From: Cupriavidus necator
GTDB lineage: Bacteria; Pseudomonadota; Gammaproteobacteria; Burkholderiales; Burkholderiaceae
Reading direction: 5' to 3'
DNA length: 32,000 nucleotides
Assembly (NCBI RefSeq): GCF_016127575.1
Contig: NZ_CP066018.1
Span: 270,001-302,000, forward strand
The position numbers and the translations under genes were made by a program. Numbering within the stretch: position 1 is the stretch's first letter; each line of letters begins with the position of its first letter. Of this stretch, positions 22,814 through 29,263 are shown one piece after another. The notes beneath the pieces were generated by a model. The model worked only from the letters and a program-made list of their open reading frames with translations, did no database searches and was not told where the DNA came from.

Positions 22814-24274
22814 ATGAACGCCGGCGATCTCGGAATCCGCAACCTGGCCACCGCGCAGCAACTGCTGCTGGCACCGTACGGCCTGGACGAGGCCAAGCTC
22901 CAGCGCGTGCTGGCCGATATCTTCACGCACAAGGTCGACTATGCCGACCTGTACTTCCAGTACACCCGCAACGAGGCCTGGAGCCTGGAAGAAGGCATCG
23001 TCAAGTCGGGCAGCTTCAGCATCGACCAGGGCGTGGGCGTGCGCGCGGTCTCGGGCGACCGCACCGCCTTCGCCTATTCGGACGACATCAGCCTGGCGGC
23101 GCTGTCGCAGGCCGCGGCGGCCACGCGCACCATCGGCCGTGCCGGCAACGGCCGCGTCAAGGTGGCCGGCGAGCTGGCCACGCACGCCGGGCGCAACCTG
23201 TACGCGCCCAACGACCCGCTCGACTCCATGAGCGCGGCCGAGAAGGTGGCGCTGCTTGAGCGCGTCGAGCGCATGGCGCGCGCCAAGGATCCGCGCGTGG
23301 TGCAGGTGATGGCAGGCCTGGCCGGCGAATACGACGTGGTGCTGGTGGCGCGCAGCGACGGCGTGATCGCCGCCGACGTGCGTCCGCTGGTGCGGGTCTC
23401 GGTCACGGTGATCGCCGAACACGGCGGGCGCCGCGAGGTCGGCTCTTCCGGCGGTGGCGGCCGCTATGCCTATGGCTACTTCACCGACGAGCTGCTGCAG
23501 AAATATGTTGACGAGGCCGTCTCTTCGGCCCTGGTCAACCTGGACGCGCGCCCGGCCCCGGCCGGCTCGATGACCGTGGTGCTGGGCCCGGGCTGGCCCG
23601 GCGTGCTGCTGCATGAAGCCGTCGGCCACGGCCTGGAGGGCGACTTCAACCGCAAGGGCTCGTCGGCCTTTGCCGGCCGCATGGGCGAACGCGTCGCGGC
23701 CAAGGGCGTGACCGTGGTCGACGACGGCACGCTGGCCAACCGCCGCGGCTCGCTCAACCTGGACGACGAAGGCAACCCGACCCAGTGCACCACGCTGATC
23801 GAGGACGGCATCCTGCGCGGCTATATCCAGGACACGCTCAACGCGCGCCTGATGAAGATGCCGGTCACCGGCAATGCGCGCCGCGAAAGCTATGCCGCGC
23901 TGCCGATGCCGCGCATGACCAACACCTACATGCTCAACGGCGACAGGGATCCGCAGGAGATCATCGCCAGCGTCAAGCGCGGCCTGTATGCGGTCAACTT
24001 CGGCGGCGGCCAGGTGGACATCACCAACGGCAAGTTCGTGTTCTCGGCGAGCGAGGCCTACATGATCGAGGACGGCAAGATCACCTACCCGGTCAAGGGC
24101 GCGACGCTGGTCGGCAACGGCCCGGAATCGCTGAAGGATGTCACCATGATCGGCAACGACATGCGCCTGGACTCGGGCGTCGGCGTGTGCGGCAAGGAAG
24201 GCCAGAGCGTGCCGGTGGGCGTGGGCCAGCCGACGCTGCGCATCGAGAACATGACGGTGGGCGGCACCGCCTGA
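22814..24274 (+). CDS. tldD: Metalloprotease TldD
   Basis: 486 aa. [11 protein letters not shown] (HExxxH) and overall TldD/PmbA-fold sequence. Preceded by AGGAAGAAAGGA. Confidence 0.93.
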
Positions 24275-24338: not shown

Positions 24339-25394
24339 TTACGGCCGCACTTCATACACCAGGTTGAACGGCGTCTGCGCCGCGCGGCGGAAACTGCTGA
24401 AGCCGGCCTGCTCAACCACTGCGCGCATGCGCGCCTCGCCCGCCTGCGCGCCCAGGCACAGGCCGACTTCCTGCGCGCGCGACGCTGGCGTGCAAATGAA
24501 GGTGGACGCGGAATAGAACACCCGGCCCAGCGGGTTCAGGTTCTGCTCCAGCGTGTCGTTGGCAAACGGTTCCACGATCATCCAGGCGCCATCGGCACGC
24601 AGGGTCTCGCGCACGTGGCGTGCCGCGCCGACCGGATCGCCCATGTCGTGCAGGCAGTCGAATACCGTCACCAGGTCATAGTCCTTGCCGCCGTAGTCCT
24701 TGGCGGTGGCCACTTCGAAGCGCACGCGCTCGGTCATGCCGGCGCGGCGCGCGGCTTCGGCCGCATGGCGCACCGAAGGCTCGTGGTAGTCGAAACCGAC
24801 AAAGCGCGAGGCCGGATACGCCTGCGCCATGATGATGGTCGACGCGCCGTGGCCGCAGCCCACGTCCGCCACCGATGCGCCCGCCTTGAGCCGCGCCTCC
24901 ATGCCGTCCAGCGCGGGAATCCATTCCGAAACCAGGTGCGCCGCGTAGCCCGGCCGGAAGAAGCGCTCGGTGCCGTGGAACAGCGCGGGATCGTGCTCGT
25001 GCCAGCCCAGCCCGCGGCCGTTGCGGAAGATATCGATCACCTTCGGGATGGCGCGGAACTGCGCCACCGCGATCTGGAACGCGCCCGGGATGAATGCGAG
25101 GCTGCCCTCCTGCGCCAGCGCATAGGCCTGCTCTTCGTTCAGGCTGAACTGCCCGGTGGCCGGGTCATAGTCGACGTAGCCGCTGGCCGCCTGTGCCGAC
25201 AGCCATTCGCGCAGGTAGCGCACGTCTGTATGGGTCTTTGCCGCCAGCACTTCGGCGGTCATTGCTTTTTCCGCCATGGCCTTGTACAGGCCGAGTTCAT
25301 CGCCCACCACCACGGTCGCGGCATGCATCACCGCGCCGATATCGTTGACGAATTTTTCCATGAAGGCATTCAGCCTCGCTTCATCGACGCTCAT
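24339..25394 (-). CDS. Class I SAM-dependent methyltransferase with N-terminal helical/wHTH-like domain
   Basis: Start at ATG 25394 (MSVDEARLNAFMEKF...), preceded on the minus strand by GGGGAGG. Motif I is VADVGCGHGAST. The upstream 53 codons of the track ORF lack an RBS and look non-coding. Confidence 0.8.
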   Translation of the reverse strand: MSVDEARLNAFMEKFVNDIGAVMHAATVVVGDELGLYKAMAEKAMTAEVLAAKTHTDVRYLREWLSAQAASGYVDYDPATGQFSLNEEQAYALAQEGSLAFIPGAFQIAVAQFRAIPKVIDIFRNGRGLGWHEHDPALFHGTERFFRPGYAAHLVSEWIPALDGMEARLKAGASVADVGCGHGASTIIMAQAYPASRFVGFDYHEPSVRHAAEAARRAGMTERVRFEVATAKDYGGKDYDLVTVFDCLHDMGDPVGAARHVRETLRADGAWMIVEPFANDTLEQNLNPLGRVFYSASTFICTPASRAQEVGLCLGAQAGEARMRAVVEQAGFSSFRRAAQTPFNLVYEVRP

Positions 25395-25718
25395 GATGCA
25401 CCTCCCCGTGCTCACTGCTCCCCGGTTCCAATATAGCCCCGGGTATGTCGGGGAAAGCCGAAAAGCAGTGGCGGGACAAGGCTTGGCAAGGCGCCGGGAG
25501 ATGCGTACGCCAGCGCACCGCATGGCCTCGTCGACACTTGCCAATTCTGGCAAAAGGCGCTATAAAGATGCTTCGCGGCGCGACAGGCAACTGACGCACG
25601 CCGAAAATTGACCGGCCGGCGCGCAATTTCCTGCCTTTCTGCTACGCAGTGCAGCATAAATTCGGCGCTCACGACGATAATCGATTCAAGCTGACCCAAG
25701 CCAAAGCCTTTTTCCGCC

Positions 25719-25790
25719 ATGTCCGCTAAGTTTTACTTTTACTTTTTTAGCGATCTCACACCGCTGGCGGATAGGGAGGGACGGCTGTAG
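25719..25790 (+). CDS. Candidate aroG leader peptide (23 aa, MSAKFYFYFFSDLTPLADREGRL)
   Basis: ATG 25719 to TAG 25788-25790. Codons 5-10 are TTT TAC TTT TAC TTT TTT, six consecutive aromatic codons. Lies directly upstream of the antiterminator/terminator pair and of aroG. No obvious Shine-Dalgarno sequence, which lowers confidence. Confidence 0.55.
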   Translation: MSAKFYFYFFSDLTPLADREGRL

Positions 25791-25823
25791 GCAGCGCCCC
25801 GAATACAAAAAAGACCGCCAGCG
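25762..25823 (+). promoter_or_regulatory. Candidate antiterminator helix of the aroG attenuator
   Basis: CGCTGGCGG (25762-25770) is the perfect reverse complement of CCGCCAGCG (25815-25823). That segment contains the 5' arm of the terminator stem, so the two helices are mutually exclusive. Confidence 0.5.
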
Positions 25824-25841
25824 ACCCTGGCGGTTTTTTTT
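25814..25841 (+). terminator. Rho-independent terminator in the aroG 5' leader (attenuator terminator)
   Basis: ACCGCCAG 25814-25821 pairs with CTGGCGGT 25827-25834 (loop CGACC), running into 8 T (25834-25841). It ends 55 nt upstream of the aroG ATG. No plus-strand gene ends upstream of it, because the neighbouring gene is divergent. Confidence 0.75.
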
Positions 25842-25895
25842 ATACCTGTTTGTTTCCCCACCCACTCACGACCTCACAAGAATCCCGGAGCCATC

Positions 25896-26975
25896 ATGCT
25901 GAAGAACACCGACGACCTGCGCATTCGCGAACTCAAGGAACTGCTGCCGCCCGCGCACCTGATCCGCGAGTTCGGCTGCTCCGAACAGGCTTCGGACGTG
26001 ATCTACGGCGCGCGCCAGGCCATGCACCGCATCCTGCACGGCATGGATGACCGCCTGATCGTCATCATCGGCCCGTGCTCGATCCACGATACCCGCGCCG
26101 CGCTGGACTACGCCAAGCTGCTCAAGGTCCAGCGCGACCGCTTCGCCGGCGAGCTGGAAGTGGTGATGCGCGTGTACTTCGAGAAGCCGCGCACCACGGT
26201 GGGCTGGAAGGGGCTGATCAACGATCCGCACATGGATGGCAGCTTCAAGATCAACGATGGCCTGCGCACCGCGCGCGAACTGCTGCTGAACATCAGCGAG
26301 ATGGGCGTGCCCACCGGCACCGAGTACCTCGACATGATCAGCCCGCAGTACATCGCCGACCTGGTCAGCTGGGGCGCGATCGGCGCCCGCACCACCGAGT
26401 CGCAGGTGCACCGCGAGCTCGCCTCGGGGCTGTCGTGCCCGGTGGGCTTCAAGAACGGCACCGACGGCAACGTCAAGATCGCGGTCGATGCGATCAAGGC
26501 CGCGTCGCAGCCGCACCATTTCCTGTCGGTGACCAAGGGCGGCCACTCGGCGATCGTGTCGACCTCGGGCAACGAAGACTGCCATGTGATCCTGCGCGGC
26601 GGCAAGGCGCCCAACTACGACGCCGCCAGCGTGCAGGAAGCGTGCGACGCCATCGCCAAGGCCGGCCTGGCCTCGCGCCTGATGATCGATGCCTCGCACG
26701 CCAACAGCAGCAAGAAGCATGAGAATCAGATCCCGGTGTGCGAGGAGATCGGCCGCCAGATCGCCAGCGGCGACCAGCGCATCATCGGCGTGATGGTGGA
26801 ATCGCACCTGGTGGCGGGCCGCCAGGACCACGTTCAGGGCCAGCCGGTCGAGCAGCTGACCTACGGCCAGTCCGTGACCGATGCCTGCATCGGCTGGGAC
26901 GACTCGGTCAAGGTGCTCGAGGGACTGGCCGAATCGGTGCGCCAGCGCCGGCTGGTGTCGGGCAGCGGCAACTGA
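25896..26975 (+). CDS. aroG: 3-deoxy-7-phosphoheptulonate (DAHP) synthase, class I, AroG-like
   Basis: 359 aa. The N-terminus MLKNTDDLRIRELKELLPPAHLIREF closely parallels E. coli AroG. Also has KPRTTVGWKGLINDP and the rest of the class I-alpha DAHP synthase pattern. GGAG lies upstream of the ATG. Confidence 0.93.
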   Translation: MLKNTDDLRIRELKELLPPAHLIREFGCSEQASDVIYGARQAMHRILHGMDDRLIVIIGPCSIHDTRAALDYAKLLKVQRDRFAGELEVVMRVYFEKPRTTVGWKGLINDPHMDGSFKINDGLRTARELLLNISEMGVPTGTEYLDMISPQYIADLVSWGAIGARTTESQVHRELASGLSCPVGFKNGTDGNVKIAVDAIKAASQPHHFLSVTKGGHSAIVSTSGNEDCHVILRGGKAPNYDAASVQEACDAIAKAGLASRLMIDASHANSSKKHENQIPVCEEIGRQIASGDQRIIGVMVESHLVAGRQDHVQGQPVEQLTYGQSVTDACIGWDDSVKVLEGLAESVRQRRLVSGSGN

Positions 26976-27014
26976 TAGCGCCGCGGGGCCAGGGCCCCGC
27001 GCTCGCGCACACAA

Positions 27015-27047
27015 CAAAAAAGCCGCTTCCAGGGAAGCGGCTTTTTT
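27015..27047. terminator. Bidirectional rho-independent terminator between aroG and the cytochrome c genes
   Basis: A-run 27015-27021; GCCGCTTCC 27022-27030 pairs with GGAAGCGGC 27033-27041; T-run 27042-27047. A second GC hairpin without a U-tract lies at 26982-27001. Confidence 0.8.
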
Positions 27048-27075
27048 GCATTGGCGCGGCGGCGGCCGCGCGTTC

Positions 27076-27474
27076 TTACTTCTTCAGCACCAGGTCGCCA
27101 GGCAGCGACTCGATGTAGGCGGCCATGTCCTTCAGCTCCTTGCGGGTGAACGGGCGCGGCTTGCCGTCCTTGTCGGTCACGGCCGGATTGGCGTTGACCT
27201 GGCCCGCCATGATGGCATTGGAGCGGCCCACCAGCGGGTTGCCCGACACCTGGTACGACGCCAGCGCGTGGTACAGGTAGTCGGCGTGCTGGCCCGCCAG
27301 CTTGGGGTAGTCCGGCGAGATCGGGGCGTTCATGCCCGCGCCGTGGCAGGCCACGCAGGCACCCTTTTCCACCAGCGCCTTGCCGGCGGCAAGGTCGGCG
27401 GCCGAGGCCGGCATCGCGGCAGCACCCAGCACGAGTGCGCCGAGCGCGAACGAAAGCGTCTTGAGCGTATTCAT
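27076..27474 (-). CDS. Monohaem class I cytochrome c
   Basis: Signal peptide (…AAAMPASA), haem-binding CVACHG, and a distal Met candidate in SNAIMAGQ. 132 aa. Confidence 0.85.
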   Translation of the reverse strand: MNTLKTLSFALGALVLGAAAMPASAADLAAGKALVEKGACVACHGAGMNAPISPDYPKLAGQHADYLYHALASYQVSGNPLVGRSNAIMAGQVNANPAVTDKDGKPRPFTRKELKDMAAYIESLPGDLVLKK

Positions 27475-27484
27475 GAGGGGTCTC

Positions 27485-27832
27485 TTACTTGAGGGAATTG
27501 TTCTGCGTGCCGGCCTTCTGCTGCGAGTAGTAGGCCGCCACGTTGGCGATGTCCTGCTCGGTCAGCGTCGCGGCGATGCCGCGCATGGTCGGGTGCTTGC
27601 GCTCGCCCTTCTGGTAGGCCTTGAGCGCGTTCTCGATGTACTTGGCGCTCTGGCCGCCCAGCAGCGGCACTTCATAGATTTCGGGGAATGACGCACGGTA
27701 GCCCGGAATGCCGTGGCAGCCGATGCACATTGCAACCTTGTCCTTGGCAGCGTCTCCATTGCCCTTGACTTCCTGTGCCTGCGCAGCCGTTGCAGCCGCG
27801 CCCAGCACCACCATCGTGAGGAGCTTTTTCAT
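27485..27832 (-). CDS. Monohaem class I cytochrome c
   Basis: Signal peptide (…AATAAQA), haem-binding CIGCHG, and a distal Met candidate in HPTMRG. 115 aa. Its stop is 10 nt upstream of the next cytochrome c start. Confidence 0.85.
   Translation of the reverse strand: MKKLLTMVVLGAAATAAQAQEVKGNGDAAKDKVAMCIGCHGIPGYRASFPEIYEVPLLGGQSAKYIENALKAYQKGERKHPTMRGIAATLTEQDIANVAAYYSQQKAGTQNNSLK

Positions 27833-28372: not shown

Positions 28373-29263
<891 letters not shown>

Follow-up and report, generated by a model that had tools for sequence, protein, structure and literature searches.

The DNA considered here is a stretch of 32,000 nucleotides (nt) from Cupriavidus necator (contig NZ_CP066018.1, positions 270,001 to 302,000 of the forward strand), referred to as the window, whose own numbering is used throughout. 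Directly upstream of its aroG gene lies a short leader element (25719-25841), which very probably belongs to the ribosome-mediated, or leader-peptide, transcription attenuators and would control aroG. This reading was put forward in an earlier note made from the bare sequence (the original prediction) and rests on comparison: the parts of the element and their conservation, codon phase, frame-independent blocks, spacing and covariation support it, as does the published phenotype of the orthologous gene in Ralstonia solanacearum. The mechanism is a classic one, and leaders of 3-deoxy-7-phosphoheptulonate (DAHP) synthase genes are known in Corynebacterium and predicted in Acholeplasma. New is the element itself, which is apparently uncatalogued, absent from Rfam 15, unannotated and found in most Burkholderiales. 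The features of the region, all on the plus strand, are the following:

25631-25660: candidate sigma-70 promoter, CTGCCT-N18-CATAAA, assigned with low confidence by analogy with relatives.
25719-25790: leader open reading frame (ORF) of 23 codons with ATG at 25719, TAG at 25788-25790 and the peptide MSAKFYFYFFSDLTPLADREGRL (sequence and ORF list).
25720-25727: region 1, UGUCCGCU, pairing with 25766-25773 in the minimum free energy (MFE) fold; candidate anti-antiterminator or pause helix.
25731-25748: sensor run, codons 5-10, TTT TAC TTT TAC TTT TTT (sequence).
25762-25770: region 2, CGCUGGCGG, 5' arm of the antiterminator (sequence, fold energy and conservation).
25778-25800: inner hairpin of the antiterminator with the UAG (25788-25790) in its apical loop (folding).
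25807-25812: A6 tract before the terminator, able to pair with the U-tract; conserved (columns 153-157 of the alignment A1, see below) and paired in the MFE fold and the RNAalifold consensus.
25814-25823: region 3, in which the terminator 5' arm ACCGCCAG (25814-25821) overlaps the antiterminator 3' arm CCGCCAGCG (25815-25823).
25827-25834: region 4, terminator 3' arm CUGGCGGU (sequence and terminator scan).
25834-25841: U-tract of 8 T, the first closing the stem and 7 unpaired; conserved across A1.
25887-25890: Shine-Dalgarno sequence GGAG of aroG, 5 nt before its ATG (sequence).
25896-26975: aroG, DAHP synthase of 359 amino acids (aa), the gene that would be regulated.

The leader ORF, its peptide and its run of six aromatic codons were confirmed from the sequence and the ORF list, and no other run of at least six aromatic codons occurs in any of the six frames of the window. 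The original prediction had set the exclusive use of TTT for Phe against the prevailing GC-ending codons of the genes around it. All four Phe codons of the window leader are TTT, and across 69 leaders TTT makes up 85% of the Phe codons (257 of 303), compared with 16% in the adjacent aroG and 12% in the genes of the window. This bias fits selection for a slower, wobble-read codon. The terminator agrees base for base with its description: ACCGCCAG (25814-25821) pairs with CTGGCGGT (25827-25834) across a 5-nt loop, the U-tract has 8 T, and the aroG ATG at 25896 lies 55 nt beyond 25841. As had been pointed out, the hairpin has no co-directional gene to end, because the upstream neighbour, a class I methyltransferase-like gene at 24339-25391, is on the minus strand. 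The A6 tract extends the hairpin to 14-15 base pairs (bp) in the MFE fold, which is why a simple terminator scanner reported the site on the minus strand only. The claimed complementarity between leader and terminator is exact as well: CGCTGGCGG (25762-25770) is the reverse complement of CCGCCAGCG (25815-25823) over 9 nt, region 2 starts 13 nt past the final aromatic codon, and the stretch 25815-25821 is used by both the terminator and the antiterminator helix. A 151-nt fold of the region gives a z score of −3.65. The product of the downstream gene matches the AroG equivalog NF006723 of NCBIfam with 592 bits (cut-off 568) and is orthologous to R. solanacearum AroG1 (RSc2660). AroG catalyses the entry step into the synthesis of Phe, Tyr and Trp.

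A scan with the AroG protein, one genome per species, yielded 80 loci with identities of 70-98%, the closest relatives being Cupriavidus lacunae (98%) and another Cupriavidus (97%). An aromatic-rich mini-ORF precedes aroG in 68 of the 80 loci, and in all 68 it is followed by a terminator built on CCGCC...GGCGG with a U-tract. The leader peptide reads MSAKFYFYFFWHLRPLADREG(C) in Burkholderia, Paraburkholderia and Caballeronia, MKFASPAFYFYFFGFLKPLAEEG... in Alcaligenaceae and M..RFYFHFYFSYS.P.AVEKR in Oxalobacteraceae. An alignment of 69 sequences (A1) served to build a covariance model (R1). The model gives one strong match per locus, just upstream of aroG and on the same strand, in 70 of the 80 species-level relatives, adding the loci L065, which is cut by a contig end, and L072. 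The element occurs in Burkholderiaceae (Cupriavidus, Ralstonia, Burkholderia, Paraburkholderia), Oxalobacteraceae, Alcaligenaceae and metagenome-assembled genomes (MAGs) of Burkholderiales; among the 10 loci that lack it are Rhodocyclaceae, Nitrosomonadales and several MAGs. Run against unrelated control loci totalling 507 kb, the model has no match at E ≤ 0.01. As a further negative control, a degenerate 'RIDDVRI' scan provided 55 usable metagenomic loci of DAHP synthase paralogues (55-61% identical, taxonomy unknown); an aromatic leader with an adjoining terminator is present in 0 of these 55, which says nothing firm on the aroG2 of Burkholderiales. Judged by this comparison of sequences, the leader element is not a product of chance.

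The set conserved across copies consists of the ATG, the aromatic run and three GGCGG/CCGCC blocks. The ATG and the run are kept in 68 related loci. The run comprises 6-8 aromatic codons in relatives, and its aromatic identity is preserved through synonymous changes (TTT/TTC, TAC/TAT) and F/Y/W/H exchanges. Counted from the ATG, the GGCGG of region 2 follows at 44, 47, 50, 53 or 56 nt, with the phase the same in 61 of 69 sequences; indels before region 2 are thus mostly multiples of three. All 69 sequences share the GGCGG core of region 2, although it is read in three frames, and all 69 likewise share the CCGCC core of region 3. Natural 1-nt indels just past the run (L019:1314-1460, L025:1315-1395, L037:1247-1315) scramble the C-terminal part of the peptide and leave the RNA blocks intact. 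Such a pattern is expected if the coding function is confined to the start and aromatic codons and the remainder functions as RNA. The GGCGG lies 11-17 nt past the final aromatic codon in 63 of 69 sequences, approximately one ribosome leading edge; the outliers have a spacing of 8-9 nt (L046, L064) or a split aromatic run (L019, L058, L061, L070), and region 2 is always found 8-17 nt beyond the dominant run. In L019, the leaf-nodule symbiont Candidatus Burkholderia humilis, the frameshifted ORF extends through the terminator.

Many relatives add Trp to the run (FYFYFFWH or FYFYFFWY), with 43 TGG codons over the 69 leaders, so that the family looks like a Phe + Tyr (+ Trp) sensor; by comparison with these relatives, the window copy has lost its Trp codon. 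Trinickia and Oxalobacteraceae carry His codons within the aromatic run (FHFHFYFF and FYFHFYF, respectively), and in many Burkholderia the run is followed by 'WH'; the leaders concerned are L021, L022, L040, L049, L053 and L057. Each of these His codons is one transition from a Tyr codon and may reflect His sensing or neutral drift.

The terminator and antiterminator helices are mutually exclusive, and their energies were compared as suggested with the original prediction. In the window, the terminator (14 bp) has an energy of −19.5 kcal/mol, the antiterminator helix of −16.9 kcal/mol and the helix between regions 1 and 2 (1:2) of −8.65 kcal/mol. The whole leader, folded without a ribosome, reaches −42.7 kcal/mol with the terminator forced and −33.8 kcal/mol with the antiterminator forced. 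RNAalifold on the 69-sequence alignment returned the terminator only and did not recover the antiterminator, which was therefore tested as a named structure. Compensatory changes are found in both helices. The terminator is paired in 97% of the alignment cells, and 5 of its pairs vary in a compensatory way; at two positions, for instance, A-U is replaced by G-C in 9 sequences each. The antiterminator is paired in 87% of the cells in its named register vs at most 54% in slid registers, and its flanking pair occurs as U-A (47 sequences), U-G (6), C-G (3) and A-U (2). At this flank, regions 2, 3 and 4 carry U/A/U in 50 sequences, U/G/C in 7 and C/G/C in 3; upon these changes in region 3, both of its alternative partners remain compatible.

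An inner helix, whose sequence differs among lineages, forms in the spacer that separates regions 2 and 3. Most of the 61 distinct spacers have the stop codon within or beside this helix, with a mean z of only −1.2, and the antiterminator is hence best viewed as a long interrupted hairpin. Folding of truncated transcripts with a ribosome moved stepwise along the aromatic codons gives pairing of region 3 with region 2 in nearly all sequences; many of them depart from this at the most 3' aromatic codon, from which the assumed footprint extends to region 2. The 1:2 helix of the MFE fold (UCCGCCA/UGGCGGA), formed by the start-codon region 25720-25727 with 25766-25773, has a duplex z of approximately −3 vs shuffles in most Burkholderiaceae. 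As a general feature of the family, this helix was rejected, its significance being confined to most Burkholderiaceae.

From the comparison we infer translation of the leader ORF, stalling, an order of folding and a role for region 1. Transcription would start upstream of 25719, and a ribosome would translate the 23-codon leader. If Phe-tRNA or Tyr-tRNA is scarce, the ribosome would stall on the aromatic codons 25731-25748, largely rare, wobble-read UUU, with a footprint that covers region 1 and stops just short of region 2 (25762-25770). Region 2 would then pair with region 3 (25815-25823) once the latter leaves the polymerase; the antiterminator hairpin would withhold the terminator 5' arm, and polymerase would read into aroG. 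If both charged tRNAs are plentiful, the ribosome would pass region 2 to the stop inside the inner hairpin. Region 2 would be blocked or, in the wake of the ribosome, paired with region 1; region 3 would pair with region 4, and transcription would end at the U-tract, 55 nt before aroG. The original prediction placed a ribosome at the stop between the two antiterminator arms. This is plausible, but the stop codon of the window is located 17 nt past region 2, and a ribosome there would not cover region 2; it would probably melt the hairpin 25778-25800 and abut region 2.

Reporter data are published for the orthologue in R. solanacearum. There, lacZYA was fused at approximately +54 of aroG1 (RSc2660) with the native upstream region (Zhang et al. 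2019, PMC6379268). Expression of aroG1-lacZYA is reported to be 10-15-fold higher in a delta-aroG2 strain (702 vs 47 Miller units) and to fall to 316 Miller units, approximately 2.2-fold, with 1 mM Phe (PMC6379268). The primers of that study fit the R. syzygii locus L006 perfectly, at 963-982 within tldD and at 1481-1500 immediately ahead of the ATG, and the AroG1 N-terminus in the primers, MPKNTDDLRIRELKEL, is that of the window AroG. The promoter fragment of the reporter appears to start at primer aroG1A1B (963); it would therefore span the leader (1265-1345) together with the terminator (stem 1367-1389, U-tract ending at 1398) and extend to +54 of aroG. By analogy, the reporter behaves as an aromatic attenuator predicts: low basal expression, strong derepression and partial re-repression by Phe alone.

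Several points weigh against attenuation by a translating ribosome. The terminator fold beats the antiterminator fold by approximately 6-12 kcal/mol in every ribosome state modelled, so that antitermination, like that of trp, must be kinetic. When window transcripts are truncated, the 2:3 helix is the MFE structure even without a ribosome or with a ribosome at the stop, and the on/off logic consequently rests on kinetics and sterics. Equilibrium folding was rejected as a proof of the switch, since the terminator fold always wins and 2:3 forms without stalling. As the 5-bp core of the antiterminator is invariant, this helix shows modest covariation; the five core pairs are uninformative either way. 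The 1:2 helix is broken in Trinickia and not significant in families other than Burkholderiaceae. No Shine-Dalgarno sequence was found before the leader ATG in the window (..aagcctttttccgccATG) or in most Burkholderiaceae, and translation of the leader ORF is thus a prediction. Lastly, the aroG1-lacZYA data cannot separate attenuation from promoter control, and their authors propose no mechanism (PMC6379268).

The last point leads to the explanation that survives best beside attenuation: A TyrR/PhhR-like factor at the promoter mainly regulates aroG, and the hairpin is a constitutive partial terminator or an insulator. The Ralstonia fusion data fit promoter control equally well, and an insulating terminator is conceivable there, with tldD upstream on the same strand. 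However, the window has no immediately upstream co-directional gene, a TyrR-type box with up to 3 mismatches was not found upstream of its aroG, and an insulator leaves the conserved ORF, the codon run, the complementarity of regions 2 and 3 and the spacing unexplained. As the main mode of control, a promoter factor is thus quite improbable; acting in addition to the attenuator, it would conflict with nothing, since the two models are not exclusive.

A strong terminator, a compact transcript of approximately 125 nt and a conserved sequence would also suit an independent small gene, encoding a hydrophobic micro-protein or a trans-acting small RNA (sRNA) unrelated to aroG control, and attenuator-derived sRNAs and peptides are described in Sinorhizobium (rnTrpL, peTrpL). 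Yet each locus with the element has a single copy, always immediately before aroG and in its orientation, and the natural frameshifts show that the peptide past the run, which has no family, is not conserved. We assign very little probability to this explanation, although a role in trans could be secondary to one in cis. Least probable is the proposal that attenuation is real and a protein or small molecule senses the conserved RNA (riboswitch-like or TRAP/PyrR-like), the aromatic ORF being incidental: It would suit RNA blocks that are better conserved than the C-terminal peptide, the lack of a Shine-Dalgarno sequence and the modest antiterminator covariation, but it gives the rare-codon enrichment no role, leaves the one-ribosome spacing from run to region 2 unexplained, finds no riboswitch or T-box match in Rfam and has to face an ATG and run kept over deep divergence with synonymous changes and in-phase indels.

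The start of the leader differs among lineages. GAGGA precedes the leader ATG in some Oxalobacteraceae. Burkholderia and Paraburkholderia feature a conserved TTGYCA-N17-TATAAA approximately 35 nt upstream of the leader ATG, and close Cupriavidus relatives retain 'gcagCATAAAt'. A scan of the window for consensus promoters gave no canonical promoter at the leader. In Alcaligenaceae and several Burkholderiales MAGs, a conserved extended −10 box (for example TGcTAGAGT, TGgTAGATT or TAAAAT) ends 6-9 nt before the leader ATG, with 8 nt given for Alcaligenaceae (L050-L056, L060, L063, L069, L070, L075, in the 20 nt before the ATG; e.g., L050:1301-1320), which predicts a leaderless mRNA for the leader peptide, unusual for Proteobacteria. 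A wider picture, tentative and on balance doubtful, would combine leader translation without a Shine-Dalgarno sequence, truly leaderless in Alcaligenaceae and several MAGs, with one leader that integrates two to three tRNA charging states (Phe, Tyr and, in many lineages, Trp) and acts as the main valve of the shikimate pathway across Burkholderiales. If true, this would be a proteobacterial attenuator working by 70S or leaderless initiation, and its abundant terminated RNA might act in trans.

No family of Rfam 15, riboswitches and T-boxes included, reaches its gathering threshold anywhere in the 32-kb window. The scan against leader families named in the original prediction gave sub-threshold matches: Phe_leader (RF01859) with 19.0 bits (E = 0.98) and Thr_leader (RF00506) with 21.7 bits, each against a gathering threshold of 55, and Leu_leader (RF00512) with 17.9 bits against 50. 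Membership in the Thr, Phe or Leu leaders was rejected, as these alignments rest mainly on the terminator hairpin, and with the model scores failing, the element stands outside every curated leader family. The leader peptides belong to no NCBIfam or Pfam family, and of the exact peptides only one, from Alcaligenaceae and unnamed, occurs in a collection of 15 billion proteins. A description of the Burkholderiales aroG leader was not found in the searchable literature; older subscription papers lie outside this search, and a prior description is thus possible. A proteobacterial regulon comparison covers TyrR and TrpR control of aro genes and mentions attenuation for trp and pheA in gammaproteobacteria only (PMC5343134).

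The surroundings of the leader differ between Ralstonia and the window. In Ralstonia (L006:64-1500), the leader and aroG come straight after tldD and share its strand. The window has the minus-strand methyltransferase-like gene (24339-25391) inserted between a tldD-like ORF (22814-24274) and the leader, so that the promoter of the aroG leader is divergent from the promoter of this gene. Downstream, a second A-tract/hairpin/T-tract at 27012-27048 lies 37 nt past the aroG stop, and the terminator part of the model gives a weak match to it on both strands. Its position between the convergent aroG (plus strand) and a c-type cytochrome gene at 27076-27474 (minus strand) makes a bidirectional terminator probable. 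As read from their translations, the ORFs 27076-27474 and 27485-27832 (both minus strand) are small, tandem and CxxCH-containing (c-type cytochrome-like), and the ORF 28373-29263 (plus strand) downstream of aroG encodes a MoxR-like AAA ATPase. The second DAHP synthase gene of R. solanacearum, aroG2 (RSc0743), is reported to be regulated like aroG1 (PMC6379268). According to the primers, its annotated start codon is located inside an inverted repeat, UCCGCCG-N12-CGGCGGA (PMC6379268, Table S1), a repeat that echoes the CCGCC/GGCGG blocks of the aroG1 leader. What is described as a 'unique 43-aa N-terminal extension' of AroG2 may thus be 5' leader RNA that was annotated as coding by mistake. A primer-derived 32-mer for the upstream region of R. 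solanacearum aroG2 gave 0 matches.

The attenuator provides a testable mechanism for carbon entry into aromatic amino-acid synthesis in Burkholderiales, where TyrR-type control of aroG was not found. This order includes Cupriavidus necator, the Ralstonia wilt pathogens, the Burkholderia cepacia complex, Bordetella and Achromobacter. The mechanism would account for an unexplained result in R. solanacearum: the 10-20-fold cross-derepression of the aroG genes together with repression by Phe. In this species, aroG1 is reported to affect type III secretion and virulence as well (PMC6379268). For the engineering of aromatics in C. necator, deletion of leader and terminator should deregulate aroG. 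Because this well-populated family is missing from Rfam 15, genome annotation leaves the region blank.

Among known systems, E. coli pheL-pheA (RF01859) features the same kind of architecture: a short leader ORF with a Phe run, alternative antiterminator and terminator helices, a U-tract and stalling that leads to readthrough. It differs by controlling pheA, hence the terminal Phe branch, and by carrying Phe codons only, whereas the element described here precedes the common entry enzyme; the two share no sequence or model homology. The E. coli pheL has a Shine-Dalgarno sequence. E. coli trpL and pheM-pheST follow the 1:2, 2:3 and 3:4 logic with kinetic competition, the terminator being the more stable fold, and the element would share both the four-segment logic and the kinetic competition. 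In trpL and pheM-pheST, a single amino acid is sensed and region 1 overlaps the regulatory codons; in the element, region 1, where present, is positioned at the start codon, the regulatory codons fall into the 1:2 loop, and 1:2 is dispensable in several lineages.

The original prediction regarded a mixed Phe and Tyr leader before the first common enzyme as a distinct wiring. Two precedents qualify this claim. In Corynebacterium glutamicum, the Phe-Tyr-Phe leader aroR is located upstream of the DAHP synthase gene aroF; stalling under Phe limitation is reported to enhance transcription, and Tyr availability to have no effect (Neshat et al. 2014, via PMC11802643). The likeness, a mixed aromatic leader before a DAHP synthase gene, is one of function only: As described, aroR is actinobacterial and has three aromatic residues, whereas the Burkholderiales element has 6-8 aromatic codons, often with Trp, and the two are presumably of independent origin. 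In Acholeplasma, the motif uORFC-13-1 upstream of aroF comprises a predicted Phe upstream ORF (uORF) beside an intrinsic terminator (Brewer et al. 2021, PMC8632094). It resembles the element by its Phe-codon uORF and intrinsic terminator before a DAHP synthase gene and, as published, differs by its host group (Mollicutes, 24 representatives), a U run coding for at least one Phe, the presence of a ribosome-binding site, a purely computational basis and an unrelated sequence. For E. coli aroG, DNA-level repression by TyrR, with no leader peptide, is described (PMC5343134). The same enzyme and the same aromatic amino acid signals would thus be connected by TyrR repression in E. coli and by an attenuator in C. 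necator and its relatives.

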